Made by a program: the position numbers and the translations under genes
Shown here: piece after piece, positions 166 through 41,745 of the stretch
Position numbering within the stretch: position 1 is the stretch's first letter
Layout of the letters: each line of letters begins with the position of its first letter
The notes under the pieces: generated by a model
What the model was told of the DNA's origin: nothing
The model's database searches: none
What the model saw: the letters and a program-made list of their open reading frames with translations, nothing else
Virus record (IMG/VR): IMGVR_UViG_3300045988_173571
Coordinates: 1-41,745 of that record
Direction: 5' to 3' (one strand)
Length of the DNA stretch: 41,745 nucleotides
Source: a virus

Positions 166-207
166 ATAAAAAAAGGAGTTACTGTTTTAGTAGCTCCTTT
201 TATTTTA
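166..207. terminator. Bidirectional intrinsic terminator between the convergent partition ORF (+) and the 62-aa ORF (-)
   Basis: Stem ggagttact (175-183) / agtagctcc (189-197), loop gtttt, flanked by an A-run upstream and a T-run downstream. Confidence 0.7.
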
Positions 208-388
208 TCGCCTTTTGGCAATCCTTATACCAAAGACATATATCATCACTGCATTTCTTAGTTGCATAGCAAGGATTATTTCCCTCTTGCTCCTGCAATA
301 TATGTATCATATCAGCTTTTTTTGCTTTCTTTGGTAGCTCTATAGCTCTATCTTTTGCTATAGCTTTTATATCTTTTATTGTTGGCAT
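200..388 (-). CDS. Small SAP/Rho_N-like protein with a C-terminal Cys cluster
   Basis: 62-aa ORF with RBS gaaggtgag upstream. N-terminal IKDIKAIAKDRAIELPKKAKKADMIHIL resembles SAP/Rho-N helix-extended-helix motifs. C-terminal C..C..C.W...C pattern. Confidence 0.55.
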   Translation of the reverse strand: MPTIKDIKAIAKDRAIELPKKAKKADMIHILQEQEGNNPCYATKKCSDDICLWYKDCQKAIK

Positions 389-502
389 CTACTCACCTTC
401 TTTCTATTGGTATATATAAATCTTTTAAAACTAGACACTAACTTTGGCTTTACTTCTGACCCAAAAAAGATTACGCTTGGGAGGATTGCGGAGCCGTGTT
501 CT

Positions 503-553
503 AGATATAGTTATACCTTTAGCGTTCTACTAAAGATATAACTATATTTTTTT
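503..553 (+). terminator. Terminator-like hairpin plus T7 run (may equally be a structural stem of a minus-strand RNA)
   Basis: atatagttata (505-515) pairs with tataactatat (537-547), followed by ttttttt. Confidence 0.35.
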
Positions 554-769
554 ACGCCTGGTTTTCTTGCGTCTGCCAGTCCAGTTTCTACTAGTTCCTG
601 CTTTTACACAGGTAGGATTTTTAACGGTTACCTCATTGCCCCAACCGCCATGCGTTTCCACATGTTATCCTAATACGGCTTACAGATAAAATCTGCAATC
701 CCAATCTGCAATCTAAAATTGCTTTAACCACCGTCGTCTACTTTTAACCATACAATTATATTAACCGCA

Positions 770-795
770 TAAAAAAAGAGCCTTAAAACGGCTCT
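770..795 (-). terminator. Intrinsic terminator on the minus strand inside the ORF-free region
   Basis: Minus strand reads agagcc-gttttaa-ggctct followed by ttttttt. Confidence 0.6.
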
Positions 796-1123
796 GATTT
801 GCAATTTATATAATAGGTTAGGCTTATTAAGGGAGTTTAACGACATTCCGCCCTCTTAGGTAAATTTGGATAGTAGAATATATCCAAATGCCCCGCCGAT
901 TTCCCTGCCTCTGCTGACGATACAGTGGATTACTTTCTGCAATCCTAGTTTATACACCTTGCCAAGTGTAGCTTTCGCTTTCCATGAATAAGCATCATGG
1001 CACGCTGATATGGTTTATTCCCATACCTGATTTTAGATACTAAAAAACACATTTATCATCATTCCCACATGGGAAAAATGTAAATGTGCCTACTTAACCT
1101 ACCTAAAATCATTAATAATTTAT

Positions 1124-1142
1124 GATATGTCGTTGACATATC
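1124..1142. promoter_or_regulatory. Inverted repeat GATATGTC-gtt-GACATATC (operator-like) overlapping the -35 of the sRNA promoter
   Basis: 8-bp perfect arms separated by 3 nt. Confidence 0.45.
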
Positions 1143-1161
1143 GCTAATATATAAGTATAAT
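1133..1161 (+). promoter_or_regulatory. Consensus sigma-70/sigma-A type promoter
   Basis: TTGACA (1133-1138), 17-nt spacer, TATAAT (1156-1161). Confidence 0.7.
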
Positions 1162-1167
1162 GAGTTT

Positions 1168-1250
1168 AGAAAACAACTCGGACAACTTATTTGTGGTAGG
1201 TTGTTCGGCAAGACCAATCGTGTTACCAGCACGTTTGGTCTTTTTTATTT
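1168..1250 (+). ncRNA. Candidate ~80-nt small RNA with two hairpins
   Basis: Lies downstream of the consensus promoter. Hairpin 1 is 1179-1186/1200-1207 with a 13-nt loop uuauuugugguag. Hairpin 2 is aagaccaa..cgtg-uuaccag-cacg..uuggucuu followed by UUUUUUAUUU. No ORF. Confidence 0.5.
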
Positions 1251-1326
1251 CTAAAAACTTTTTATTAAATTGTCAAATTATTTACACCTTTATAATATAT
1301 TAAATTAAACCTATTGTCAAACTAAA

Positions 1327-1492: not shown

Positions 1493-1574
1493 CCTTACAT
1501 CTAATGTTTCTATTAATCAGATGAGCTGTAAATATTATAGCTTATCTTTGATTATCTATCAAGGAGGAGTTTTT

Positions 1575-3272
1575 ATGGAAAAAGAAAATTTGGTAGGTAA
1601 AAAATTTAATATGTTAACTGTATTAGAAGAATTACCTCATTATAAAGTTCGTTGCAAGTGCGATTGTGGCAATGAAAAAATAATTGATAAATATAAGGTA
1701 AAAAATGGAATAATAAAATCTTGCGGTTGTTTAATTTTAAAACAACGAAGATTTCCAAAAGATTATACAGGTAAGAAATTTGGTATGCTTACCATTACCA
1801 AAGAATTAGGGAAGGGAAAAGTCCTAGCCAAATGTGATTGTGGCAGTGAAAAAATATATACAAAAAGTCCTATTATTGCTGGTAAAATAACTTCTTGTGG
1901 TTGTCAAAAAACTATAAATAAAGACTATACAGGACAAAAATTTAATCACCTAACTGTTATAAAAGAACTGGGTTCTGGTAAAATTCTTTGTCGTTGTGAT
2001 TGTGGCAATATCAAAGAGTATGTAAAAAATCCTGTTGTCAAAGGGAATATAAAGTCTTGTGGTTGTATTACACGTGAAGGCTTCCCAAGAGATTTAACAG
2101 GTAAAAAAATTGGATTGCTTACAGTTCTATATCCAACAGATGCAACTTATAAAACTTTTCATTGTCGCTGTGATTGTGGTAATGAAAAAGATATATCAAG
2201 AGGACATCTTGTATCTCAAAATATTAAATCATGTGGCTGTTTACGTGGAAAAAGACTTAAAGAAAATAAAAAAAAGAGCGAGTTTAATAACTTAAATATA
2301 AAAAGAATATTAAAAACAGATGCAAATTCTAATAATACTACCAGTGGGGTTCGTGGTATTATTTGGGCAAAAGAAAGAAATAAATGGAATGTCTATATAT
2401 CCAGAAAAAATCTTGGATATTATGATACCTTAGAAGAAGCTAAAAAAGTTAGAAAAGAAGCAGAAGAAAAATATTTTGCCCCAATTATAAAAGAATATTT
2501 TGCAAATAAAAAAGCAAAAGTTCGTAAATCTTATGTAGGTCAAAAATTTAATATGCTTACAATATTAGAGGAATTAGGTGGCAATAAAGTTCTTTGTCGC
2601 TGTGATTGTGGTAACGTAAAAATACTGACCAAATCAACCGTAATTAAGGGAGGAACCAAATCTTGTGGTTGCTTACTTACAGGTAGGAAAATAAAATCTT
2701 ATATAGGTAAAAAATTTAACCACCTTACTATTATTAAAGAAGATGGTGGCTACAGAACAAAAGCAATCTGCCAATGTGATTGCGGAAATATCATTAAAGC
2801 CCTAAAAAAAGATGTCATTTTAGGGGCGAAAAAATATTGTGGCGATAAAAACTGCCCTTATAAAACAAAAAGACATGTTACTTCAAAAAAAAATATAATA
2901 GGTAAAAAATTTAATATGTTAACTGTATTAGAAGAATTTTCTACTATAGATTCTAAAGGGCGAAGTATAAAAAAACTACGTTGTAAATGTGATTGTGGCA
3001 ATGTTGTTGAAGTAATAAAAGCAAACGTTACTCGTGGGCATACCAAATCTTGCGGGTGTTTAAATAAAAACAGACATATGATAAATAGAACAGGTCAAAA
3101 ATTCGGTATGCTCACCATTTTAAAAGAGCTAGGAAATAACAAAGTCCTTTGTCAATGCGATTGTGGAAGTATAAAAGAATATACAAAATCTTTAGTTGTC
3201 AAAGGTAATACTAAATCATGTGGGTGTACTAGAGTAGAAAGTATACGAAAAGCAAAAAAGACTACCAAATAA
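1575..3272 (+). CDS. AP2-domain DNA-binding protein carrying eight tandem Cys-rich Zn-ribbon repeats (4 + AP2 + 4)
   Basis: AGGAGG at 1563-1568 lies 6 nt before ATG 1575 (the track start at 1521 has no RBS). Eight units of G(K/Q)KF(N/G)xLT(V/I)...C.CDCG(N/S)...SCGC. Central SGVRGIIWAKERNKWNVYISRKNLGYYDTLEEAKKVRKEAE matches the AP2 pattern. Confidence 0.85.
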   Translation: MEKENLVGKKFNMLTVLEELPHYKVRCKCDCGNEKIIDKYKVKNGIIKSCGCLILKQRRFPKDYTGKKFGMLTITKELGKGKVLAKCDCGSEKIYTKSPIIAGKITSCGCQKTINKDYTGQKFNHLTVIKELGSGKILCRCDCGNIKEYVKNPVVKGNIKSCGCITREGFPRDLTGKKIGLLTVLYPTDATYKTFHCRCDCGNEKDISRGHLVSQNIKSCGCLRGKRLKENKKKSEFNNLNIKRILKTDANSNNTTSGVRGIIWAKERNKWNVYISRKNLGYYDTLEEAKKVRKEAEEKYFAPIIKEYFANKKAKVRKSYVGQKFNMLTILEELGGNKVLCRCDCGNVKILTKSTVIKGGTKSCGCLLTGRKIKSYIGKKFNHLTIIKEDGGYRTKAICQCDCGNIIKALKKDVILGAKKYCGDKNCPYKTKRHVTSKKNIIGKKFNMLTVLEEFSTIDSKGRSIKKLRCKCDCGNVVEVIKANVTRGHTKSCGCLNKNRHMINRTGQKFGMLTILKELGNNKVLCQCDCGSIKEYTKSLVVKGNTKSCGCTRVESIRKAKKTTK

Positions 3273-3333: not shown

Positions 3334-3416
3334 CGCAACTAGTTTTTGTGTTCTTTTATTTAAATATCAATAATGTTCCTGCTATTATTTGCCATAATAG
3401 CCTTTGTTTTTTCAGT

Positions 3417-3854
3417 TTATTTTGCTCCTGCTCGGATATCTTCAATGATTGTGAGACTTTGTTCAATTCTTCGCTGGCTATCATCAATGAGTCCTGTGCT
3501 TGTTGTGATTGAGTCTTGAGCGTTTGTAATTGCTGTGTTAATGTTTGTATTTGTGTCTGTGATGTCATCAGCTGTGTCTTTAGCTTCGTTATTTGACTGT
3601 TCAATTCTTCCGACTGTTTCGATGCTGTCATCAATTCCTGATTGGATTTGTTCAATAGATTCTGTAGCTCGTTGTTGTTCTTCTTGAGCTGTATTAAGTT
3701 GGTTTCTAGTGTCGTTAGTTGTTCCTGTGTTATCGTATACGTTTGCGAACAGTAACCAGTAGGCAAAGCAAATACACAGCACAAGCAAAAAAACACAGCA
3801 CATTTTTTTATGTTCCTGGATAAAGCTTTTAATTTTACTAAGCACATTTATCAT
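3417..3854 (-). CDS. Membrane-anchored protein (N-terminal TM helix, acidic Asp/Glu/Asn/Thr-rich ectodomain with recurring IEQ motifs); function unknown
   Basis: ATG 3854 overlaps the TGA of the upstream ORF (coupling). Third codon positions are mostly A/T/C, as in the rest of the genome. TM segment is CCVFLLVLCICFAYWLLF. Confidence 0.55.
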   Translation of the reverse strand: MINVLSKIKSFIQEHKKMCCVFLLVLCICFAYWLLFANVYDNTGTTNDTRNQLNTAQEEQQRATESIEQIQSGIDDSIETVGRIEQSNNEAKDTADDITDTNTNINTAITNAQDSITTSTGLIDDSQRRIEQSLTIIEDIRAGAK

Positions 3855-4090
3855 CACACTTCAAATTCTTCAATAACTTTATTTTCTGCACGCTGTTCAC
3901 AGAAATAAATTACATCACCATGTTCACTATGTCCCATGGTCAAATATCTATTATCACCTTGTAAATTAAATTTGTCGTTAATATCGAGTAATGCACTATT
4001 AATATTCTTGGTATTAGTTTTATACACATTTTTAATATATGCCACTACTTCTTCAGGTAATTTTTTTGTACTAATAATTTTTACTAACAT
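3854..4090 (-). CDS. Hypothetical protein (78 aa)
   Basis: RBS aaggagta 7 nt before the ATG. Compact spacing within the operon. Confidence 0.6.
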   Translation of the reverse strand: MLVKIISTKKLPEEVVAYIKNVYKTNTKNINSALLDINDKFNLQGDNRYLTMGHSEHGDVIYFCEQRAENKVIEEFEV

Positions 4091-10933: not shown

Positions 10934-13900
10934 TTAATATCTCCTTACGTTCTTAGATTTCCCCTTTTTCTTTGGTTGTTTCGGTTTTTCTGGTATCACT
11001 CTTTCTACTGGCTTTTTATTAAAGAGTGCAGACCAAATAATATTTTTAAGGTTCGTATCATATCGACCATCACCATCAGCTATATATTGCATAGTGGTGA
11101 AGACACTATTTGCCATGGTACTTGTTATACCTGTTCTAGCTGCAAAAAATGTTGTACCTATTTCGCCTGTAGCTTTTGCTATATCTGCATAGGTTATGCG
11201 TTTTGGTGGCTTTTGGTACTGTTTATCTTCAAGCATGGTCTTTCTTTTCTTTGCCCCTGCCTTCATATATTCAGCTTGCCATTTAGCTTCCTTATCTGCT
11301 ATCTCTAAATCTTTTTCTGCTTTTTTATCTAGCAGTTTATATAGTGCAGTTATCTTTTCACCGCCAGCAAGTGCCACATTAGAAAAGCCAATACCTCTAC
11401 CATAATCTGTACCTTCAAAACTTTCATTGATAAAAAAGCTTGCTATATCTCGTACACCCCACATAGTGCCAGCCATAGTGGATAAAGTATTTTTGCCAAA
11501 CTGTGTCAAAAATCTTTGCATTGCAGGTATCTCTATTTTTTCTTCTGTACCCTCTGCATTTTTCACCTTTTCATATTTATGCTTATCATCATTTCCATCA
11601 CCGAGCAGTGCCATACGTAGCATAGTAGATAATGCAGAAGTAAGCACAATACGATATAGAAAAGACCTTGCCACAGGTAGCCACCTTGTAATATTTTCAC
11701 CCATTGTAGTCGGCTTCATAAATTTTCCTTTATAGTAAGCTTGCAAGATAGCATTAGCCTGCGTATTAAAGAAAGTGTAAAAAGGTGTAAATAATTTCAG
11801 CAACTCTCCACCTTTTTGGATAGATGCTAAATCTTTTGTCTGTCCACTTCCGAATACTTCACGAATAGATTTATCAGCTTCAGCAATGGAACGACTTTCA
11901 GCTTCAGCCAAGATTTCTTTATCTGTTAAGAATCTAAGCTCACTCGCATTATCTAGCTCTACTTCCGCCATATATAAATCTTTTTGTAGTTGATTTAATT
12001 CTTCTCTTGTATTTACAAAAGTCTTAAAATCCCCCACTTGATTTATATTTGTACCTTGCACATCAAAATTTGATTTCAATGCATTTTGTTGCAGGTCCAT
12101 TATTCTAGCTCTGATTGTAGATACCTTAGCTTGTGCATTTTGCAATTTTTCTACATTAGCTTCATTTTCTTTTTTTACCTCATTAAGTTTTTTAGCATAG
12201 GCATCTTTATAGCTTCTACACCATAACGGAGCAGAAAACATCAAATCACTATAGGTCATAAGTGTGTATGCATGTTCTTTTAAAAATCCTGTTACTAATC
12301 TATCTTCATCAAATAATCCCGGAATGTATTTTATATCCCTGTCCATATGATTTAGCCTATTCTTCATAAAGATTGATTTATGCAACACTTCTTGATATTT
12401 ACTTATATTTGTATAGTAATCTGCTATTGCTACTAAAGATTTCATAGCACCTAATTTATCCATCATTGGTGCAATGTTGGTCATATTTTCAATTATTGGA
12501 TAAAGTCTATATCCCATTATTGCAAATGTGGAATTTGTTCTTAAATAGCTAAGCATTTTAGACACTTTTTGCACTGTTTTATTATTACTAGCTTCTGGTA
12601 TCACTCGCCAATTATCCACTGCCCATTCATCTAATACCTGGTATATTTCTTTACCCATAGTTCTATTTACATATTCTTCAAATTGTTTATTTTTTACTAA
12701 TCTATAAACATCTCTTGCTGGTATTCTATGCGTTATATTGTGGATTACATTTGATAAATGGTCAGGTATTACACTAAATTCTAAAAGCAACGCTCTATCA
12801 ATATTTGCCTGTGAACGTGCCTTTGTAAATCCTCTGCCAGTGCCTAATACTTGTGCACCGCTCATAGTACGTCTTACCGCTTCATTTACCTCTTGTTCAT
12901 TGGCTCTATTGCTCTTTAGTGGATTAGCTACTATAGGATAATAGCCACCTTCTAAATGCAATATCTCGCCATCAGGTAACTTCACATCAAATGGTGTTGG
13001 CTGTTGCGGTTTTAGTGTTACGCCGTTTAATTCTTGCTCTACCCTTACTGTATCTTTCCAGAAAGAATGTAAATGATTCCATATATCTTGTACCATTTGC
13101 CAATCCTTTTTGGTCATATGCTTTTCAACAAATTCTTTGAGATATTCTTCTGTCAAGCCAAATCCTACAGCAAGACGGCTTCTATTTATATCATTACCTA
13201 GGTTTAGAGCCATACAGATAATATTTTCTTTTGATAGATTTTCTACTGTACCATCTTCAAATTCCAATTTATACTGCTGTTTCTTCCATGATAATTTTTC
13301 ACTATGGCTATAATCTTTTAAAATTTCTTTTATCTTATATACGTTTTTGGTCATCATTTCAGCTTCAAGATTAGATGCTCGCTCATACGTTTCATACAGA
13401 TATTTATGAGCTTTTGTTCCCAAAATATTTATTATTTCTTCTGGTTTCATCATGGAACTTAAATATTTTGCACCGCCACGAGCCATAGCGTCCCCAATAA
13501 GTGGTATCTTATCCACTAAATCGTTATAGCCAAGACCGCCTTTATCTGGATTTATCTTTTTATTTATTACCATTGACCTGTTATAAGCAGTATCATCAAG
13601 TATTATTTCATTTATAGCATCATCTATAGATTTCCCCTGTATAGTTTTTAGCTTGAATTTATCTCTACCTGTTGTATATAAGATATCTAGTGCTTCCACT
13701 GCGTCCTCGAATTGGGCTATAGTCATAGATTGATAACCGCTGAAATCACTACGGCTTGTTATCTCTAATATATCTGTTGGGGTATATTCTAAATCCAAGC
13801 TGTCTTGTAATCCCTTGAATAAATCTGCAAGTGGTGTTATTCCGTCTACAGGTGGATTAGCATCTTTATTTGTGATACCTAAGATATAGGCTAAATGTTT

Positions 13901-16900
13901 ATGCCAGTATCGTTCTTGTGCTGGTAATTTTATGGATCGTACTTTTAGCTGTTTATTCACCTTCTCTATTTTCTTTTGTATATACAATTTATTTTTCAAT
14001 GCCTTTTGAGCCATAGCAGCAGAAATATACTGTGCTTCTTTTTCTTTCATGGCACGCTCCCAGTTACTAGCCTTTACAGCTTGTTTTACTCTGCGTGCAT
14101 GCATACTTTCATTCTTACGATAAAGAGCTACATTACAAGCTTCAAAAATAGTTTTGCCGTCCAAAGCACGCTCTGCCATTTCCTTGAACATTTTCAATTT
14201 ACCTTCATGGGCTTTTTCTATGGCTTCACGATTTATCTTTTGCTGTTTTGTTTCTTCTACAAATTGTTTAAAAGCTTCAGCTAAAGTTTCTTTTGTATTG
14301 CTATTAAACATTGCTTCAATTTTTCCTAAATCTTTGGCATTCCATTTAGTGCTAAATCTAAGCTTATTCAAAGCGTTCATCACATTTTTTACTCTAGCAT
14401 CTTCTTTATCTACTTTTAAATCTGTGTAATCATCAAGGGCATTTAATTTATCTTCTACATCTTGCATAGCAACTTGCGTTTTAGAGCCTATTTTATTTAT
14501 CAATTTTACTTTTTCATTAAATATCCTAGTTTCCATTGCCACAAGTTTACTTGTATACTTACTATCTTCCATAGCCTGCAAGATATTTTCTTCGGATAAA
14601 TGGCTTTCCATTAGTTCAGTATCTAAAGTTTTTTCATACTGCTTCATGTATTCATCAAGTGCAGTCTGTATAGGCTTAGTATTTTTTAGGGCCTGTTTAT
14701 ATTCTTCTACGCTACCAAACCAATTAAGAACTATATTTATATCTCCTGCTTCTTTATAAGCTTCTTGAGCTATATATACAGGTTGATTTTCTAATTCATT
14801 TAGTTTATAAGCTCGCTCTTTTTCTACACGTTCATCAAATTTTGCTTTGGCTTCAGCTTTTAAATCTTGCATTACTATCTTCATTAAATGCTCTTTGGCT
14901 TCTTCTGTAGCTTCCTTGTGCCAACGTTTATAAGTTTGTTCTTCCGTTTCATCAAGTAGCTTTTCACCGCCTGCCTTAGTGATATCTCTATATCTATCAT
15001 CTAATGCCATTTGATTTATTTCTTCTTCTGTAGCCACCATACGTTGCATTATGGCTTCTACTTTTGAGCTTGCTACTCCGCCAATAGAAGTAAATCCAAT
15101 ATAGATATCACGCAAGAATTTTTTAAACTTACGGAACACATCTTTTAAGCCTTTACTTGGTGCAGTTCCTTTTTGTAAATATAATTCAAATGCCCTTGCA
15201 AATCGTTCTTGTCGCCATGCTTCTTTTAATTCTTCCACTTTGGCTACATCACCAGCATTTTTAGCATTTATTATACTTTCATGACGTGCTTTAAATTCTT
15301 TGTACCATGGAGCATTTTTATATTCATCAATGGATTTTTCATTTTTCCAACTTGCCCAATCATTTACTATATCCAATTCTTTTTTAGATAATTCATCAAT
15401 CTTAGCAAGCTCATCTAAATCCATTAAAAACATATGTGCCATTTCATGTACAAAAGTTGATTCATCAGCAGATTTATACAGATTGATAACACGCTGACCA
15501 TTACTCAATAAAGTGATATCACCTTTTATATTGGCAGTAGTTTCATTTTTTATTTTTTGTACCTTTTTCTGTACTACTTTTTTATTTTTTTCTTCTACTT
15601 TTTCAGCAGTTTCTTGTATGATATTTACTTCTTTATTGGTTAATTTAGGTGCTTCTTTTTTTGCTGTTATAATTACTTTCCCATCACTGCTAACAATTGC
15701 ATTTTCATCATGAATAGTTGGTTTATTTAATAGATTATAATCTCCTCTACCTACTCTATTAGCAGTTTCCCTTGCTTCTTGTTCACCCCCTAAATTCATA
15801 TAAACTTCTATATCATCTATTTTTTGCAAGTCCCAATATAACTTTGCTTTTTCAAATTTTTCTAAATCAGCATTTTTTAATGCTTCAAGTTCACTTGTTC
15901 CCTCTTTTCTCAAGTTTTCACTTTGAGCTTTTGATTTCCAAAAAGCACTATTATATGCTTTTATTTCCTTCAATACTTCATCATAAAGTTGGTCTAAAAT
16001 TTCTTGCTTAGAATTTAAATTTCCGCCACCTGCAAACCCTTCTATTTTCTGAATTAAGTGTTGTATTTCATGTACGATATTAATTTTCATTTTATCTGTA
16101 TCTACATTCAATCTATCATTTATTACTATTACACTTAATTTTTTGCCATTAATATCTACATCTCTAGCACTAGCTTGATGTTCTATACTTTTACTTTTTT
16201 CTTTTAAGACTAATATATCTCTAAGTTGTGGATAGGCTTCATATAGTTTTTCATTCTTATAAATCTTATCTAATGAAATAGAATTTGTTTCATCAAAACT
16301 GTTTGCTAAAGTTATATTATTTATTTTTTCGAGAGGTTTCATATCAAATAATTTAGTATCATCAGGTATTTCAAATCTCCATTTATTATCTTTTCCTTTT
16401 ACCCAACCTGTATATTGCCAAATTACCTCATCAGTATATTCACCCTCTGCATCTAATTGCTTAGCTATTTTTAATTGTTCAATGTTTTTATTTAGTGCCT
16501 TTTCGCCTGCAAATTGTTTATATGTTCCTTTTCCTTTTACAGTATTTAGAGCAAATCTTTCATTGTAATAAGTCATGGCTGTGTAGTTTTCATTGCCATG
16601 TCTTCGCATTATGTCTGCCACTATATCTGCATGTCTAGCAAATAAAATAGCACTCATACGGCTTGCACGTTTTACTTTTCCGCCAGCATTTTGAAGTTGT
16701 TTTGATAGGCGATTATATACTGCATATCCGTCTTTAGTAAGTCCTTCAGCCAACCTCATTTCTACACCATTTAAATTGCTAAGCTGTGGTTTTATCTCAT
16801 CTAATACCTTCAAATTATTATCTATATCATCTAGTATATTTTTATTTTCAGCCAAAGCTTGCACAGCTTCAGGAGTTGTTGCTTGCCATGTTGGTATAGA

Positions 16901-19405
16901 TGGTGCTGTTTCATCTCCTACAGTTAATTTATAAGCCATATCTTCAATTTCTTTATCAGTCATGGCTCTGTTATGTTTAGCATAGAATTCCTGATACCAT
17001 GTATCATTTTGTTCTATGCTCTTTTTTATGGCATCTATTGCAGGCACTAAAATATTATTTCTTTCATTTATCTGGTCATCACGGACTTGTTTCCAACCTT
17101 TAGCTGGATTAGATACATTATTGTAAATTACAGCTTGTGCCATAGTCTGCTGTTCTTTTGTACCATTTGCAAATTGTTCTTGCATTATGGCATCTATCAG
17201 CATACGTTGCTTATCTGCTGTTTTTTGTATACTATCTTGCATTTCACTTGTTATAGTTTCAGCATTTTTTCTTAGCTTGCCGATTGGATCTGCTTCTTGA
17301 TTGAAAGTTACAGCACGCATGATATCGCTTGTAGTTTCCGCTTGAGCAAATTTCGCTGTAGGAATTGCAAGCGTTCCACCTATTTCAATAGCTGTTTTTA
17401 AATCTTCCTGCGTATATCCTGCTGTCTTTGCCAATGTTTCAAGGTCTTGCTTTCCTGTTTGACTTTCAAGTGCTGTAGGTATATCTACATAAGCCATTTC
17501 AAAACCTGTATTATCCAGTTGGCTACGCAACAATCTTTCTTGTACCTTTGGTGCTGTCTTTTTTAATTTGCTATTTCTAACAGCAGATTGTAATCTTTCT
17601 AACATCAGTGTACCTGCGAAAGTTTGTCTAGTGCTTTGCTCCAATTTAGCATTATTACTCATCAATCTTTTTAGATTGCGAGAAAATCCCAAAGACTCAT
17701 TGAAGCCACCTACTCCAGCAGATATCACACCAAAGCCAATAGCTCCTGGTAGTGCTTCGCCTGCACTCATCAAAGCACGCTGTGCAATCTCTGTAGCTGT
17801 ATATACTCTATTTGTAGTATCGCCAGTATCTTGCATTATTTGATTGTGTACCAAATCATCAGATATTGATTGCAAACCTTCTTCGCCACTTTCCGCCATA
17901 GATACCTTAGCTATTGCACTTGCTCTATTAGTGAAGAAAGATTTTATACCTTCTTTGGCTAGTGCTTGTTTTTGTGCTGTAGCGATAATTTCTTTTACAG
18001 TCTGCTTGGCTACGTTGCCTGTGAATGCGTCCTTGATTAAACCAAAATCTAGCATTTCAATACCAGCATTTAATGCACCTGCTACTACTGCATAATCTTG
18101 AGCTGCTTCATCTGAAAGTAGTGGCTTTCCATCTTCGCCTTTCAAGTCTTTGAATTCTGCATAATATCCGCCAGTTGCAGGCTTTGCCATACCTGCAAAC
18201 ATTCCATATCTTGCTAGATATCCACCTGTTAATCTTGCTCCTTGCATAGCTCCTTGTCTTATGGTATTTGTCCTTATAACATTTAAAATACCACCACCGA
18301 CTGCACCTGCTAAACTACCACCTACATTACCTATTACAGGAACAGCTGAACCTGCTAAAGCACCTGCTACCATACCTGCACTAGCACCTATAGCAAAATC
18401 ATCTATCATCTCGCCCATAGACTGTATCATCATTGGCATAGAGCCAGCCACTCCGCCTGCTATTACAGCAAATGGATTATCTAAAAATGCAGGTAGATTT
18501 GGTGCTTGTTCTAATTGTTTTTTTAATTCATCAATGCGAGCCTTATCTTCTTCCGTTGCCTGCCCTGTCATTAATTTATAATTTAAATTGCTATATTCAA
18601 GATGTTTATTTCCGTACTCCCACATTTTATTAAAAGAGTCAATGACTCCCTGCGTTTCTCTTACGCTATTAATATCATGTAGAGCTAGTGCAGCTGATTG
18701 TGCGTCCATACTAGCTATATTTTTTAATTCTGGAAATTCATTAAATACATCATTCATATCTCCGCCAAGTTCTTTTTTCTTCTTAGCGTAGTTATAAATC
18801 TCAATGGCTTCACGATATGCAGTAGTATCATTTAAAAACTCTTTGGCTTTTATGCCTGTTTCATTTTCAATCTCAATGGCTTTTTGAAGTTTTTCCTCAT
18901 CAGTCATCATGTAATTTACATAGGCATTGCTCTCTTGTATTCCCTGTGCTACATCTTGCAATATGCTTTCATTGTCATCACTATAGCGATTTACAATGGC
19001 ACGGCTTACTTGTTTTAATGGTGAATAAATAAGTTCTTGCCCTGCCTGTTGTAAATTTTCTACAGCTTTATTTTGAAAACTATAATCGCCTGTTTCATTT
19101 GCTTGATTAATATTTGCTGTAGTATATGCTCCAGTAATATTTCTTTGCTCATCTAAAAAATTATGATAAGCATTGTTGATATCACTAGCTGTATTTACTA
19201 CTAAATCTATCCCTTGCCCTGCTGTTTGCAGTGCGTCCTGTGCAATTTCTGTAGACTCTTGGGCTACTTGTCTATTTATATCAGATTGATTTGTTACTAC
19301 TTCGCCAATCTGTTCAAATATGGATTTTTCTTCTTCAGGTGGCTGTTGCTTTTCTGCTACCTTTTTATTTACTAAATCACTAAATTTATTTACGTCTAAA
19401 GCCAT
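10934..19405 (-). CDS. Giant (2,823 aa) internal virion / DNA-ejection protein with polyvalent-protein features and two zincin HExxH motifs
   Basis: Single uninterrupted ORF with RBS taggagt. HEIQH at residue 1112 (nt 16058-16072) and HEMAH at residue 1320 (nt 15434-15448). Gly/Ala-rich hydrophobic segments around residues 310-385. Occupies the T7 gp16 position. Confidence 0.9.
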   Translation of the reverse strand: MALDVNKFSDLVNKKVAEKQQPPEEEKSIFEQIGEVVTNQSDINRQVAQESTEIAQDALQTAGQGIDLVVNTASDINNAYHNFLDEQRNITGAYTTANINQANETGDYSFQNKAVENLQQAGQELIYSPLKQVSRAIVNRYSDDNESILQDVAQGIQESNAYVNYMMTDEEKLQKAIEIENETGIKAKEFLNDTTAYREAIEIYNYAKKKKELGGDMNDVFNEFPELKNIASMDAQSAALALHDINSVRETQGVIDSFNKMWEYGNKHLEYSNLNYKLMTGQATEEDKARIDELKKQLEQAPNLPAFLDNPFAVIAGGVAGSMPMMIQSMGEMIDDFAIGASAGMVAGALAGSAVPVIGNVGGSLAGAVGGGILNVIRTNTIRQGAMQGARLTGGYLARYGMFAGMAKPATGGYYAEFKDLKGEDGKPLLSDEAAQDYAVVAGALNAGIEMLDFGLIKDAFTGNVAKQTVKEIIATAQKQALAKEGIKSFFTNRASAIAKVSMAESGEEGLQSISDDLVHNQIMQDTGDTTNRVYTATEIAQRALMSAGEALPGAIGFGVISAGVGGFNESLGFSRNLKRLMSNNAKLEQSTRQTFAGTLMLERLQSAVRNSKLKKTAPKVQERLLRSQLDNTGFEMAYVDIPTALESQTGKQDLETLAKTAGYTQEDLKTAIEIGGTLAIPTAKFAQAETTSDIMRAVTFNQEADPIGKLRKNAETITSEMQDSIQKTADKQRMLIDAIMQEQFANGTKEQQTMAQAVIYNNVSNPAKGWKQVRDDQINERNNILVPAIDAIKKSIEQNDTWYQEFYAKHNRAMTDKEIEDMAYKLTVGDETAPSIPTWQATTPEAVQALAENKNILDDIDNNLKVLDEIKPQLSNLNGVEMRLAEGLTKDGYAVYNRLSKQLQNAGGKVKRASRMSAILFARHADIVADIMRRHGNENYTAMTYYNERFALNTVKGKGTYKQFAGEKALNKNIEQLKIAKQLDAEGEYTDEVIWQYTGWVKGKDNKWRFEIPDDTKLFDMKPLEKINNITLANSFDETNSISLDKIYKNEKLYEAYPQLRDILVLKEKSKSIEHQASARDVDINGKKLSVIVINDRLNVDTDKMKINIVHEIQHLIQKIEGFAGGGNLNSKQEILDQLYDEVLKEIKAYNSAFWKSKAQSENLRKEGTSELEALKNADLEKFEKAKLYWDLQKIDDIEVYMNLGGEQEARETANRVGRGDYNLLNKPTIHDENAIVSSDGKVIITAKKEAPKLTNKEVNIIQETAEKVEEKNKKVVQKKVQKIKNETTANIKGDITLLSNGQRVINLYKSADESTFVHEMAHMFLMDLDELAKIDELSKKELDIVNDWASWKNEKSIDEYKNAPWYKEFKARHESIINAKNAGDVAKVEELKEAWRQERFARAFELYLQKGTAPSKGLKDVFRKFKKFLRDIYIGFTSIGGVASSKVEAIMQRMVATEEEINQMALDDRYRDITKAGGEKLLDETEEQTYKRWHKEATEEAKEHLMKIVMQDLKAEAKAKFDERVEKERAYKLNELENQPVYIAQEAYKEAGDINIVLNWFGSVEEYKQALKNTKPIQTALDEYMKQYEKTLDTELMESHLSEENILQAMEDSKYTSKLVAMETRIFNEKVKLINKIGSKTQVAMQDVEDKLNALDDYTDLKVDKEDARVKNVMNALNKLRFSTKWNAKDLGKIEAMFNSNTKETLAEAFKQFVEETKQQKINREAIEKAHEGKLKMFKEMAERALDGKTIFEACNVALYRKNESMHARRVKQAVKASNWERAMKEKEAQYISAAMAQKALKNKLYIQKKIEKVNKQLKVRSIKLPAQERYWHKHLAYILGITNKDANPPVDGITPLADLFKGLQDSLDLEYTPTDILEITSRSDFSGYQSMTIAQFEDAVEALDILYTTGRDKFKLKTIQGKSIDDAINEIILDDTAYNRSMVINKKINPDKGGLGYNDLVDKIPLIGDAMARGGAKYLSSMMKPEEIINILGTKAHKYLYETYERASNLEAEMMTKNVYKIKEILKDYSHSEKLSWKKQQYKLEFEDGTVENLSKENIICMALNLGNDINRSRLAVGFGLTEEYLKEFVEKHMTKKDWQMVQDIWNHLHSFWKDTVRVEQELNGVTLKPQQPTPFDVKLPDGEILHLEGGYYPIVANPLKSNRANEQEVNEAVRRTMSGAQVLGTGRGFTKARSQANIDRALLLEFSVIPDHLSNVIHNITHRIPARDVYRLVKNKQFEEYVNRTMGKEIYQVLDEWAVDNWRVIPEASNNKTVQKVSKMLSYLRTNSTFAIMGYRLYPIIENMTNIAPMMDKLGAMKSLVAIADYYTNISKYQEVLHKSIFMKNRLNHMDRDIKYIPGLFDEDRLVTGFLKEHAYTLMTYSDLMFSAPLWCRSYKDAYAKKLNEVKKENEANVEKLQNAQAKVSTIRARIMDLQQNALKSNFDVQGTNINQVGDFKTFVNTREELNQLQKDLYMAEVELDNASELRFLTDKEILAEAESRSIAEADKSIREVFGSGQTKDLASIQKGGELLKLFTPFYTFFNTQANAILQAYYKGKFMKPTTMGENITRWLPVARSFLYRIVLTSALSTMLRMALLGDGNDDKHKYEKVKNAEGTEEKIEIPAMQRFLTQFGKNTLSTMAGTMWGVRDIASFFINESFEGTDYGRGIGFSNVALAGGEKITALYKLLDKKAEKDLEIADKEAKWQAEYMKAGAKKRKTMLEDKQYQKPPKRITYADIAKATGEIGTTFFAARTGITSTMANSVFTTMQYIADGDGRYDTNLKNIIWSALFNKKPVERVIPEKPKQPKKKGKSKNVRRY

Positions 19406-36479: not shown

Positions 36480-37382
36480 TTAGCTCGTATTGCTTTTGCT
36501 TCTAGGCTTTTTGTATTTTATTAAGAAATTTACTTTGTTTAAATCCTGTGTAAAGTAGATTTCTTTTTTGAGTCTTTTAGCTTCCATTTTTTCCTGCAAG
36601 TTTATTCGCCTTGTAGGTTTATCAATTTTTATTAGTCTGTAAAATTGGTATTCATAATCGCTTTCTCCGTTACCGAATGTATAAATACCATTTATAAGAC
36701 TGTTTTTGTCCAGCATGTATCCTTTTGGAATTCTTGGTTCTCTTAGCCAATATTTCCTACGCACAATAACGCTAGTAACCTGCGGTTTTCGCAAGTTTTT
36801 GCTAGCGTTGTACCTTTTTTTATATATAGTTGGAGCAGTAAAGAAAGCATTTCTATTTTTCTTTACCATATAATTTGCGAGGTCTTCGGCATCTGTTATT
36901 TGTCCGCCATAGATTTTTACAGATACGAAGCCATGACCCCAAAGATTTTTTATATCCGTTGGATTTACCTCACAGCCTTCAACTTTTAAAAGCAAATGAT
37001 GGTGAATTCTCTGCTGTTTTGAAGTACATTCCGTACAAAATATATACTTCACCACAGCATTTTTCTTTTTATAGAAACGAATTAGCTTCTGCCTAAAATT
37101 AGCCAAATGCTTTTTTGCTTCTTCTGGTGTCGGTTCTTTTTTATTTTCCTCTTTCTTATCTTTATAAGTTAGAGATAGAAATAAATCCCCATCACCAAAA
37201 TTATTTAGAATAAGAAGCCTTAACAAATTTATAGAATTCTTGTTGTTTACTTCTTCTTGTGCCAAAGGAGTAAGTCCCATTTTTGGGCTTCTTATATTAT
37301 TCTTTACAGGTAATTTCTTGGTGTAATATATCTCCAAGATATTATTATTATTTATACTTGTCTGTTTCTTAACATAAGACAT
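36480..37382 (-). CDS. HUH rolling-circle replication initiator (pC194 / phiX174 A superfamily-like)
   Basis: Motif 1 FLSLTY, motif 2 RIHHHLLLK, motif 3 LANYMVKK, in the canonical order and spacing. Confidence 0.75.
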   Translation of the reverse strand: MSYVKKQTSINNNNILEIYYTKKLPVKNNIRSPKMGLTPLAQEEVNNKNSINLLRLLILNNFGDGDLFLSLTYKDKKEENKKEPTPEEAKKHLANFRQKLIRFYKKKNAVVKYIFCTECTSKQQRIHHHLLLKVEGCEVNPTDIKNLWGHGFVSVKIYGGQITDAEDLANYMVKKNRNAFFTAPTIYKKRYNASKNLRKPQVTSVIVRRKYWLREPRIPKGYMLDKNSLINGIYTFGNGESDYEYQFYRLIKIDKPTRRINLQEKMEAKRLKKEIYFTQDLNKVNFLIKYKKPRSKSNTS

Positions 37383-40005: not shown

Positions 40006-40102
40006 GCCAAAAATATGTATTCTCTAAATGGATTTTATCAAAAATTTGACCGAGTTTGATTGACTCTGCCAAAAATACTATATATTGTGTTTTATTCTAA
40101 AT

Positions 40103-40158
40103 TTATATTATTTTTATGGTATTTTTATATTATTTTTCTATTGACATTATATTATTTA
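40103..40158. repeat. Three direct repeats TTATATTATTT(T) with an exact 22-bp period
   Basis: Copies start at 40103, 40125 and 40147. A fourth copy is at 1413 in the AP2 promoter. Confidence 0.55.
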
Positions 40159-40169
40159 TATGGTATTAT
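40141..40169 (+). promoter_or_regulatory. Promoter of the acidic-protein gene
   Basis: TTGACA (40141-40146), 17 nt, TGgTATTAT extended -10. Confidence 0.6.
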
Positions 40170-40222
40170 ATAAGTGTAGTAAGGAACTACAAGAAATAAA
40201 TAACAAAAAGAGGTAATTAATC

Positions 40223-40576: not shown

Positions 40577-40584
40577 TAAAAAAA

Positions 40585-40612
40585 GGATATTACTAATGCC
40601 CTGGTAATATCC
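40585..40612. terminator. Hairpin H2 (bidirectional terminator form) sharing its core with H1
   Basis: ggatattac-taatgccct-ggtaatatcc, flanked by an A-run and T6. Confidence 0.7.
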
Positions 40613-40674
40613 TTTTTTGTTATAAAAATATTATAAATAAAATATAATAATACTATATTTTATAATTAATTGTA

Positions 40675-40683
40675 TGGTATAAT
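40675..40683 (+). promoter_or_regulatory. Extended -10 (TGgTATAAT) upstream of parA
   Basis: tgtatggtataat lies 24 nt before the parA ATG. Confidence 0.45.
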
Positions 40684-40706
40684 TATATTAAAAAGGTGGT
40701 AGAATT

Positions 40707-41423
40707 ATGATAATTAGTATTGTAAACCAAAAAGGCGGTGTTGGTAAAACTACTACTGCCCAAAACCTAGCAGCAGGACTAAGAAAATTTTATAAAAAGA
40801 AAGTCTTGCTAATTGACCTAGATTCACAATGCAATTTATCTAATGCAGAAAATTGCATGAATAATAAGTATAATATTTTCGATATGCTCACAGAAGAAAC
40901 AGCTGTAGATGAGTGTATCCAAAACGATATGATTGCTGGCTCGCCTGATATCGTAAAAATTCAAGGTGGTGCAGGATATGAATTTATCTTGCACGATTTA
41001 CTCATGCCCATAAAAGATAAATATGACTACATCATTATTGATACAGCTCCAGCACTTGGAATTACTACAATTAATGCTTTATGTGCGAGTGATTATATAA
41101 TCATCACTGCCCATGCAGATACTTTTTCTGCACAGGGTATAAATATCTTGATAGAAAAAATACAAAAGGTGCAAGTAAAAATAATGGGTGTTCTTCTAAC
41201 TAGATTTAAAGCTAGAACTATAATAGCTCAAAACATATTAGAAGACTTAAAAATAAAAACAGTTGATTATGGAACAAGAGTTTTTGATACGCAAATAAGA
41301 GAATGCGTAGCTATTCCAGAAGCTCAAAACTTAAAGCAAAATATTTTCGATTATGCAAAATATAGTAATGCTGGTCGAGATTATAAAAGTTTCGTTAACG
41401 AGGTAATAAATTATGGCAAATAA
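40707..41423 (+). CDS. parA: Partition ATPase, small type Ib ParA
   Basis: Deviant Walker A NQKGGVGKTTT, IIIDTAP Walker B-like motif, 238 aa with no N-terminal HTH domain. Confidence 0.92.
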   Translation: MIISIVNQKGGVGKTTTAQNLAAGLRKFYKKKVLLIDLDSQCNLSNAENCMNNKYNIFDMLTEETAVDECIQNDMIAGSPDIVKIQGGAGYEFILHDLLMPIKDKYDYIIIDTAPALGITTINALCASDYIIITAHADTFSAQGINILIEKIQKVQVKIMGVLLTRFKARTIIAQNILEDLKIKTVDYGTRVFDTQIRECVAIPEAQNLKQNIFDYAKYSNAGRDYKSFVNEVINYGK

Positions 41424-41745
41424 AAAGTTCACTGTAGCATCGGAATTTTTCACAGATAAAAAACCGATCGAAGATAAAATTAAAAAACCAATACCAACAC
41501 CTACAAAAAATACTAAAAAAACAGTATTTCTCTATGTTACAGAAGAAATAAAAGCTCGTCTAAAAGATAAAGCTACTAGCGTAGGCAGAACAGTAACAGG
41601 CTACATTAAGCAGACTTTAAAAAAGAATATGTATAATGAGCTTAATGATGTAGAAAAACTGTTTAAACCACAAGGTAAAATATGTTTAAACCTTGATATG
41701 GATTTATATATCAAGGTAAAAGAAGAAGCTCAAAAACAAGACCGA
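41413..41745 (+). CDS. 5' part of the partition-partner ORF (tandem ribbon-helix-helix, ParG/CopG-like); continues at nt 56..109
   Basis: The ATG overlaps the end of parA by 11 nt. The first RHH unit is TVFLYVTEEIKARLKDKATSVGRTVTGYIKQTLKK. There is no stop before the window end. 128 codons in total across the junction. Confidence 0.7.
   Translation, partial: MANKKFTVASEFFTDKKPIEDKIKKPIPTPTKNTKKTVFLYVTEEIKARLKDKATSVGRTVTGYIKQTLKKNMYNELNDVEKLFKPQGKICLNLDMDLYIKVKEEAQKQDR
41691..41745. repeat. Terminal overlap, exact copy of 1..55
   Basis: Same 55-mer as the window start. Confidence 0.95.

Follow-up and report, generated by a model that had tools for sequence, protein, structure and literature searches.

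Layout of the locus

The subject of this analysis was a segment near the start of the viral record IMGVR_UViG_3300045988_173571, which was analyzed over its whole length of 41,745 nucleotides (the window). Positions ~1320 to ~476 on the minus strand form a conserved locus for a structured non-coding RNA, and the family to which it belongs is absent from Rfam: no family of Rfam 15 matched the whole window at its gathering score. Read in the direction of transcription, the locus consists of a promoter, a leader that is the target of an ~80-nt cis-antisense RNA, a hairpin (T1), domain 1, a terminator (T2), and domain 2 (Table 1). The folded RNA has a length of ~600 to 850 nt, is accompanied by its own small antisense RNA, and was not previously described. 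A first-pass annotation of the window had placed a candidate large structured RNA or single-strand origin at 410 to 1120; this interval needs correction, as the functional locus extends from the upstream promoter at ~1320 to ~476 and includes a plus-strand small RNA at ~1168 to 1249 that had not been noted in that annotation.

The longest open reading frame (ORF) on either strand within 389 to 1520 encodes 57 amino acids (aa), in agreement with the earlier statement that none of 60 aa or more is present. The segment had also been described as GC elevated and strand skewed, and the hand counts of G+C behind this description were exact (28/60 in 601 to 660 and 27/60 in 841 to 900). Over 410 to 1120, however, the G+C was 0.373 compared to 0.326 for the whole window, with 12% of equal-sized windows at least as GC rich, and the GC skew was −0.185 (C over G on the plus strand), with 43% of windows at least as skewed. 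The rise is modest and distinct only in comparison to the adjoining non-coding DNA (G+C of 0.18 at 1260 to 1520), the skew is typical of the genome, and the composition alone is unremarkable. The folding energy, unlike the composition, is remarkable, as the minus strand folded with −225 kcal/mol (z = −7.5) and the plus strand gave z = −4.9. The three stems named in the first-pass annotation were all found to be real and conserved helices, namely the 19-bp hairpin at 505 to 547, the hairpin at ~866 to 887, and the hairpin at 982 to 1000 with its invariant loop. The minus-strand terminator proposed at 770 to 795 (T2) was likewise real and conserved and divides the RNA into two parts.

Table 1. 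Features of the RNA locus and of the adjoining par region (window coordinates)
Feature	Position	Strand	Description
P_up promoter	1292-1320	-	TTGACA, 17-nt spacer, TATTAT; score 11/12, strong; directed into the element
Leader RNA	1113-1285	-	Contains the antisense-RNA target (1168-1250) and box X
Box X	1195-1202	-	AACCUACC; within the antisense target
Antisense-RNA promoter	1133-1161	+	TTGACA, 17-nt spacer, TATAAT; score 12/12
Cis-antisense RNA (countertranscript)	1168-1249	+	~80 nt; 5' hairpin 1178-1208, terminator hairpin 1210-1242, then U run
Box Y	1096-1111	-	UGAUUUUAGGUAGGUU; pairs with box Z through its 5' part and potentially with box X through its 3' part
T1	1042-1088	-	Long hairpin, then U6-7 run; directly upstream of domain 1
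Box Z	1028-1039	-	UAUCUAAAAUCA; 12-mer just upstream of P1, pairs with box Y around T1
Domain 1	796-1027	-	~230 nt, multi-helix
P1	1027-1021 / 1013-1007	-	Domain 1 helix, 7 bp
P2	1000-995 / 987-982	-	Domain 1 helix with invariant loop AUGCUUAUU
P3	979-970	-	Domain 1 tetraloop hairpin
P4	969-964 / 959-954	-	Domain 1 helix
P5	945-927	-	Domain 1 helix
P6	925-922 / 914-911	-	Domain 1 helix
P8	894-859	-	Domain 1 helix
P9	855-851 / 833-829	-	Domain 1 helix
T2	770-795	-	Intrinsic terminator between the domains; hairpin 795-777 and U run
Domain 2	476-745	-	~270 nt, closed
Long-range closing helix	703-700 / 481-478	-	Domain 2; UGGG with CCCA; U-A to C-G change seen
Three-way junction	672-613	-	Domain 2; includes GAAA hairpin 662-651
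Hairpin	612-597	-	Domain 2
19-bp hairpin	547-505	-	Domain 2
62-aa protein gene	200-388	-	HeH/SAP-like, Cys-rich; weak Pfam matches to Rho_N and HeH
parA	40707-41423	+	parA-parB operon, convergent with the RNA locus
parB	41413-41745, continuing 56-109 across the junction	+	parA-parB operon, convergent with the RNA locus

Homologues and consensus structure

A blastn search against the GenBank phage collection gave no match, and a search of PLSDB gave a single match, the 46-kb plasmid NZ_CP048628.1 (L101) of Megamonas funiformis JCM 14723, in which 44.5 to 45.6 kb corresponds to 476 to 1320 of the window. Further copies were retrieved with patterns made from blocks common to the window and this plasmid. 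This gave 31 loci confirmed by nhmmer, with 24 distinct full-length core sequences, and another eight loci were obtained from the neighbors of the 62-aa protein family. The copies comprise a phage-plasmid clade (80 to 96% identity to the window) together with a more divergent branch (L106 to L109), plasmid-type copies (L087, at ~59% identity, and L102 to L105), and a Megamonas-plasmid clade (~57% identity). All of the ~35 homologous loci found sit on extrachromosomal elements, namely podovirus-like phage-plasmids, the M. funiformis conjugative plasmid, and a resistance plasmid. A pattern matching all known copies found no chromosomal copy in 185,579 representative genomes; its 19 matches in unrelated taxa were at chance level, and since none was confirmed by nhmmer, the scan gave no host information. 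Small circular contigs that might represent minimal replicons were also looked for, and none was found. The carriers are extrachromosomal elements of a gut Negativicute lineage with M. funiformis as the only named host, the assignment being based on this one named record together with composition and podovirus affinity.

The consensus structure is supported by the following data. Domain 1 (window 1046 to 768) and domain 2 (767 to 452) were aligned with MAFFT, 24 sequences each, and folded with RNAalifold, which gave 84 consensus pairs that were ~98% paired, 39 of them with compensatory changes. For domain 1, standard pairs were formed in 98.2% of the cells of 47 consensus pairs, and 18 pairs were changed on both sides; for domain 2, the corresponding values were 97.8%, 37, and 21. 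The observed value was reached in 0/500 shuffles for domain 1 and in 0/500 for domain 2, and when the 3' partner was slid by 1 to 3 columns, the pairing was 40 to 54% for domain 1 and 29 to 48% for domain 2. Helices P3, P5, and P7 or the pseudoknot were misregistered between clades in the MAFFT alignments and were judged from extracted hairpins.

Among the homologues, P1 was represented by at least 10 different 7-bp stems, all perfectly pairing, P5 by eight stems, and P2 by six different stems around its loop. This P2 loop and the motifs GUGUAUAAA and AAACUCCC were invariant in all copies. A possible pseudoknot between the P6 loop (CGUC) and GGCG at ~891 to 901 covaries in the phage-plasmid clade and competes with a local hairpin in the Megamonas clade. 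Two further interactions picked out by eye, a kissing interaction of the P1 and P2 loops and an 11-nt GAAA tetraloop receptor (UAUGG/CCUAAG), were not supported by the Megamonas-clade sequences. In domain 2, the GAAA hairpin was invariant among the 24 aligned sequences, the second hairpin of the three-way junction has a 13-nt loop (GGGGCAAUGAGGU), and in the Megamonas clade a hairpin of different sequence but like shape replaces the 19-bp hairpin.

The structure belongs to the minus strand. The RNAalifold energies for the sense and opposite strands were −52.4 and −28.4 for domain 1 and −28.7 and −20.5 for domain 2, and G-U cells outnumbered A-C cells by 94 to 5 and by 115 to 3, respectively, a count partly biased by the prediction of the structure on the minus strand. 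Covariation by itself cannot tell RNA from single-stranded DNA (ssDNA). The locus has RNA-type hallmarks, however, and these indicate RNA rather than ssDNA because GNRA-to-UNCG loop swaps are seen and because the U-tract terminators and the promoter are conserved in the sense orientation. The swaps occur in P3, where the same stem carries GAAA, GAGA, or GGAA and, in L106 and L107, UACG (UNCG). The G-U pairs and the invariant GAAA hairpin of domain 2 likewise point to RNA.

The upstream module

Nineteen sequences, of the phage-plasmid, L087, and L102 types, carried the antisense module. In the 19 homologues, both hexamers of P_up are kept while its spacer sequence drifts, and the transcription start deduced from this promoter is at ~1285. 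The promoter of the antisense RNA, on the opposite strand, shows the same behavior, with invariant hexamers and a variable spacer. The antisense RNA has a minimum free energy of −31.4 kcal/mol (z = −6.4), and in 19/19 homologues the plus strand of this region folded better than the minus strand (mean of −30.9 compared to −21.2 kcal/mol). Its first loop is hypervariable (11 variants among 19 sequences) and lies beside a 17-nt flank, TTGCCGAACAACCTACC, that is invariant in 19/19 sequences; by analogy, this matches the usual pattern of a cis-antisense specificity loop. The apex of the terminator hairpin (window 1219 to 1233; also L003, L035, L048, and others) was observed in both orientations among near-identical relatives (GCTGGTAAC versus GTTACCAGC and GCTACCAAC versus GTTGGTAGC), which suggests repeated inversions of the hairpin loop, probably by template switching.

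Pairing is possible between box X of the leader and GGUAGGUU of box Y, and compensatory changes in L057, L096, L087, and L086 support it in part. Box Y is conserved throughout the phage-plasmid and L087/L102 clades, and box Z is invariant in all 24 aligned sequences. Since box Z (1039 to 1028) is complementary to positions 1111 to 1100 of box Y, which directly precedes T1, T1 is placed at the tip of an extended hairpin of ~40 bp; its role would be that of an attenuator or of the end of a processing stem of this length. The T1 stem was replaced wholesale in the L013-type and L106-type homologues with the U run kept in 19/19, and in L082 it shows the compensatory change from CACAU/AUGUG to UACAU/AUGUA. 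The T2 hairpin and a U6-9 run were kept in 24/24 homologues, including the Megamonas clade, and the stem varies.

The Y-Z pairing implies that the transcript begins upstream of T1, and domain 1 is inferred to be produced by transcription from P_up through T1. A separate promoter for domain 1 is unlikely because the only −10-like hexamers are either too near P1 (TAAAAT, at 3 nt) or have no usable −35 element (TAGTAT). The Megamonas-plasmid clade has the promoter pair in the same layout with a different, repeat-containing plus-strand transcript between the promoters and no T1. In L001 (3158 to 3360, equivalent to ~45.2 to 45.4 kb of NZ_CP048628.1), a unit of ~170 nt between a 12/12 promoter and a terminator takes the place of the 80-nt antisense RNA. 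It contains three copies of TATAAAC and six copies of TAGTAG(C/T)TTT with an 11-nt period, which could be iterons or protein-binding RNA.

The par cassette and its genomic context

Bases 1 to 55 of the window are identical to 41691 to 41745, and the window is therefore a circular genome of ~41.69 kb. It carries the genes of a tailed phage-plasmid, with terminase, portal, and tail genes on the minus strand; the large terminase subunit TerL is 52% identical to those of epsilon15-like podoviruses, and a HUH Rep of the PF23343 family is encoded at 36480 to 37382. The RNA locus constitutes one half of a mobile cassette, the other half being a type Ib parA-parB operon. A single ParA family (44 to 56% identity) was convergent to the RNA in every context seen, although the order of the genes differs. 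In the window, the 62-aa ORF and then the RNA, both on the opposite strand, come after parA and parB; in L106 to L109, the ORF precedes parA and parB, and the RNA follows on the opposite strand; in L102 to L105, the order is ArdA, RNA, and ORF, then parB and parA on the opposite strand. The Megamonas plasmid has ParA2, ParB2, an insertion of ~4 kb, and then the RNA on the opposite strand, and L087 and L089 show variants of these layouts.

Between phage-plasmids, the RNA is ~85% identical compared to 29% for Rep and 46 to 53% for ParA. Between the window and its nearest relative, L003, one substitution was found in the ~470-nt core compared to ~20 in the adjacent 186-nt ORF. The 62-aa protein encoded by this ORF belongs to a small family, named "HeH/LEM domain protein" by one source. 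The ORF is often linked to the cassette and is not always 3' of the RNA (it is upstream of parA in L106 to L109 and beside a resolvase in the Megamonas plasmid); the RNA is therefore not simply its leader. No conserved small ORF was found in the RNA in a scan of nine representatives from all clades, the only recurrent frame varying from 6 to 43 codons and being absent in some.

The Megamonas plasmid is complete and conjugative (46 kb), with a type IV secretion system, a MobA/MobL relaxase, and two ParA genes, and no recognizable replication initiator was found among its annotated or unannotated ORFs, the hypothetical and unannotated ones having been scanned with Pfam. PLSDB types this plasmid as non-mobilizable despite its secretion system and relaxase. 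L087 is a plasmid fragment with a contig coverage of 342×. Two ORFs at 3400 to 5564 of L087, ~0.5 kb from the RNA, look by eye like an erm-type rRNA methylase and an ant(6)-type aminoglycoside nucleotidyltransferase. In L112 (8035 to 9681), a 57%-identical HUH Rep is directly followed by a distant ParA (29% identity), and there is no RNA element in the 18.8 kb; with a related Rep, a different ParA, and no RNA, this indicates that the RNA tracks the par cassette rather than Rep. Relative to an ArdA/SSB block of 86 to 89% identity, the cassette is inverted between L102 and the Megamonas plasmid. In all phage-plasmids, the HUH Rep and the element share a strand; given the synteny of these genomes, the cases are not independent.

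Other observations were made in the window. Three look-alike AT-rich arrays of TATAAT/TATTAT-like repeats surround the par region (1375 to 1496, 40100 to 40175, and 40582 to 40700), with two near-identical terminator hairpins (…ACTAATGCCCT.GTA…) beside them, and the arrays may be ParB operator or centromere sites. A 583-aa ORF at 1521 to 3272 (plus strand) consists of approximately nine repeat units rich in Cys (…CDCGN…SCGC…), with nine stretches that match phrog_374 ("HNH endonuclease") and no Pfam match. A single ORF of 2823 aa at 10934 to 19405 (minus strand) in the structural block is very large for a podovirus-like genome of ~42 kb. At 3356 to 3857 (minus strand), ORFs of 163 and 146 aa overlap in different frames, the 163-aa ORF having weak matches to Pfam families of the coiled-coil type.

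Interpretation of the locus

We hypothesized that the locus provides an antisense-controlled RNA component of plasmid-state replication or of maintenance and copy control, analogous to RNA II and RNA I of ColE1. This assignment is tentative, and we give it somewhat less than an even chance. The long RNA would be the cis-acting RNA of plasmid-state replication or copy control, acting like RNA II, and the antisense RNA would act like RNA I, its concentration tracking the copy number. Whether productive full-length RNA is formed would depend on pairing between the antisense RNA and the leader, involving boxes X, Y, and Z as well as T1. Once folded, this RNA would act as a primer or license for DNA synthesis, and the HUH Rep of the phage-plasmid would serve lytic replication. 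Such a role fits a long structured non-coding RNA that faces a constitutive cis-antisense RNA with variable loops against its 5' part, and it fits a Megamonas host plasmid with no recognizable Rep. It is also consistent with the convergent ParA family in every arrangement, with the episomal carriers, and with an RNA that is better conserved than Rep or ParA. Plasmid-prophages with P1-type layouts keep the plasmid replicon in such a location.

A more specific form of this proposal, a Rep-independent, RNA-primed or RNA-licensed, antisense-controlled replicon outside the Enterobacteria that is packaged with parAB as a portable maintenance cassette, must be regarded as doubtful. Such a replicon would be common to the tailed phage-plasmids and the conjugative and resistance plasmids of gut Negativicutes, with the ~600-nt two-domain RNA as its core. 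Priming by RNA, processing by RNase H, and extension by Pol I at the locus are proposed purely by analogy to ColE1.

Several observations weigh against a ColE1-like role. T1 and T2 have no counterpart in ColE1, whose RNA II has, to our knowledge, no internal intrinsic terminators; transcription could reach domain 2 only if both were leaky or regulated, and a convincing promoter within the RNA was not found. The window encodes its own HUH Rep and so has no need for a Rep-independent origin, and replication of the Megamonas plasmid could depend on its relaxase or on an unrecognized protein. Neither this antisense RNA nor T1 is present in the Megamonas-type copies, which have a different upstream module. 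The cumulative GC skew follows gene orientation and is uninformative on the origin, and the host range is based on one named record.

The same structural and contextual evidence would also fit a trans-acting structured RNA with some other benefit to the plasmid, the main rival reading, which we consider possible but rather unlikely. This could be an RNA-only addiction module, in which an RNA "toxin" is checked by an unstable antisense RNA, an anti-defense decoy, an assembly of the ROOL/GOLLD style, or an RNA that acts as sponge or scaffold for a protein of the host or of the cassette (for example, the 62-aa HeH protein or ParB). The P2 loop and the two motifs that are invariant in all copies suggest contacts with an external partner, and the terminator closes domain 1 in the manner of a discrete small-RNA gene. 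Stability and addiction loci classically adjoin par loci, and a strong-promoter antisense RNA facing a structured target is the layout of hok/sok. With no conserved peptide, however, addiction would need an RNA-only toxin, for which we know of scarce precedent. Complements of the invariant loops occurred in the window at chance level only (Y-Z excepted), with no target identified, and the lack of a recognizable replicon in the Megamonas plasmid would be left unexplained. The RNA might instead be a cis-regulatory leader or attenuator of the 62-aa ORF, with domains 1 and 2 as the sensor of a signal and as the control on read-through at T1 and T2 into the ORF, and the first-pass annotation had proposed the 3' part as a long leader of this kind. 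In the window, most phage-plasmids, and the L102 plasmid, domain 2 is followed in the same orientation by the ORF, for which no separate promoter is obvious, and two serial terminators resemble attenuators. Such a role is nonetheless very improbable: the 3' part is kept with no downstream ORF in the Megamonas clade and in L106 to L109, an unrelated 106-aa ORF is downstream in L089, L082, and L094, and the RNA is better conserved than the ORF.

The other alternative of the first-pass annotation, a single-strand origin (sso) or single-strand initiation site, was judged improbable, although less so than a leader. In this reading, rolling-circle replication (by the HUH Rep) or conjugative transfer (by the relaxase) would expose the minus-strand DNA, which in its folded form would attract RNA polymerase or primase to synthesize the complementary strand. 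The idea is attractive because HUH Rep replicons and relaxase-driven elements both yield ssDNA; the HUH Rep is on the strand of the structure in the window and in L048, L051, L085, L093, L097, and L106 to L109, and the Megamonas plasmid has a MobA/MobL relaxase and no recognizable Rep. The conjugative element ICEBs1 carries an sso, and sso function rests more on structure than on sequence (PMC4595007), so that covariation alone does not argue against one; a possible ssDNA role was also raised for plasmid-associated motifs (PMC5737381). The tetraloop swaps of P3 and the sense orientation of the conserved promoters and U-tract terminators speak against it, as does the 57%-identical Rep relative in L112, which has no element. 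The inversion of the cassette relative to the ArdA/SSB block between L102 and the Megamonas plasmid would also speak against an sso, which works in one orientation only, given the presumed transferred strand. A TAGCGT resembling CS-6 of ssoA was found only on the plus strand, at the 505 to 547 hairpin, and is TAGCAG or TAGCAT in homologues. Finally, the element occupies ~600 nt in two closed multi-helix domains, while the ssos so far described are much smaller. The chance that the locus is a diverged member of a known Rfam family (GEBRO, ROOL, GOLLD, or ARRPOF) or a decayed pseudogene with chance structure is close to negligible. A local match to GEBRO (RF02988) was obtained at 597 to 676 (minus strand), over the three-way junction of domain 2, with 20.7 bits (E of ~1e-3; model positions 255 to 338 of 350), a score far below the gathering score of 284.7 bits. 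The match was lost in the homologues (none in L001, L051, L035, L057, or L013, and none in L001 2480 to 3120 at E ≤ 10) and may reflect a common local motif rather than homology. No other family reached E < 0.05, and ROOL and GOLLD gave no match even at E ≤ 10 in 150 to 1600 or 389 to 1135; the first-pass suggestion of a large structured non-coding RNA was thus correct for the minus strand but not as regards membership in these two families. Decay of a gene, also considered there, is contradicted by the compensatory changes, by indels that ignore the reading frame, and by the lack of a conserved ORF.

With this locus, the few known large structured bacterial RNAs gain a well-supported new family. 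Most of the others lack its built-in cis-antisense partner and its sharply defined context, the par cassette on episomes, which make its function directly testable. If the RNA does act in replication, this would be the first ColE1-like system in Negativicutes and would account for the replication of the Megamonas conjugative plasmid, which seems to have no Rep. The plasmid-state replicon of a group of gut phage-plasmids would then also be known, and the genetics of a common gut genus that is hard to manipulate would gain a replicon and an incompatibility determinant. The position of the cassette beside the erm-like and ant(6)-like genes, which were assigned by eye, gives it relevance to the persistence of resistance plasmids in the gut.

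Comparison with known systems

In relation to RNA II/RNA I of ColE1 and pMB1, the locus would be an analogue rather than a member. Both have a long structured non-coding RNA in a plasmid maintenance region (~550 nt in ColE1 and ~600 to 850 nt here), with a conserved promoter (P_up in this case) followed by covarying RNA, and both have a short cis-antisense RNA with a strong promoter and variable loops that is complementary to the 5' part. A gene for a small nucleic-acid-binding protein lies just downstream in each (Rom in ColE1 and the 62-aa ORF here), a likeness by analogy only. They differ in that no relation was found by sequence or in Rfam, where RNAI (RF00106) gave no match, in the internal T1 and T2, in the different upstream module of the Megamonas-clade copies, and in the hosts, which are Negativicutes rather than Enterobacteria.

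The attenuation systems of pT181 and pIP501/pAMbeta1 likewise have a cis-antisense RNA that targets the leader, and the position of T1 ~75 nt downstream of the target and the alternative X-Y or Y-Z pairings recall them. Here, however, T1 is followed by the non-coding domain 1 instead of a rep ORF or mRNA, and its regulation is putative. Type I systems such as hok/sok share a highly structured target RNA facing a short antisense RNA with a strong promoter in a plasmid stability region, but the locus has no conserved toxin ORF, its recurrent frame varying from 6 to 43 codons. The ssoA, ssoT, ssoU, and ssoW origins and sso1 of ICEBs1 are also strand-specific, structure-rich non-coding segments on HUH-nuclease elements in which structure is kept over sequence; they differ from the present locus, which has RNA-type tetraloops and sense promoters and terminators, lies in an invertible cassette, is much larger, and has no CS-6 or RSB motifs of the ssoA type. 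ROOL, GOLLD, and OLE resemble it in having several hundred nucleotides, many covarying helices, and mobile elements as carriers. None of them was matched in Rfam, and the locus has a par operon and an antisense RNA instead of tRNA clusters and two domains split by a terminator.

The closest described elements are ARRPOF, GEBRO, and PAGEV, moderately long structured plasmid motifs in or near replication regions for which a role in replication is suspected (Weinberg et al. 2017, PMC5737381). ARRPOF lies in a gene-free region of ~1 kb that is sufficient for the Rep-independent replication of a Fusobacterium plasmid (PMC5737381). The likeness is that of structured plasmid-associated motifs, and no homology was detected. 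The present element, at roughly twice their length, consists of two domains, is accompanied by an antisense RNA and a linked par operon, and occurs on tailed phage-plasmids as well. It is a new family within this known kind of plasmid-associated structured RNAs.

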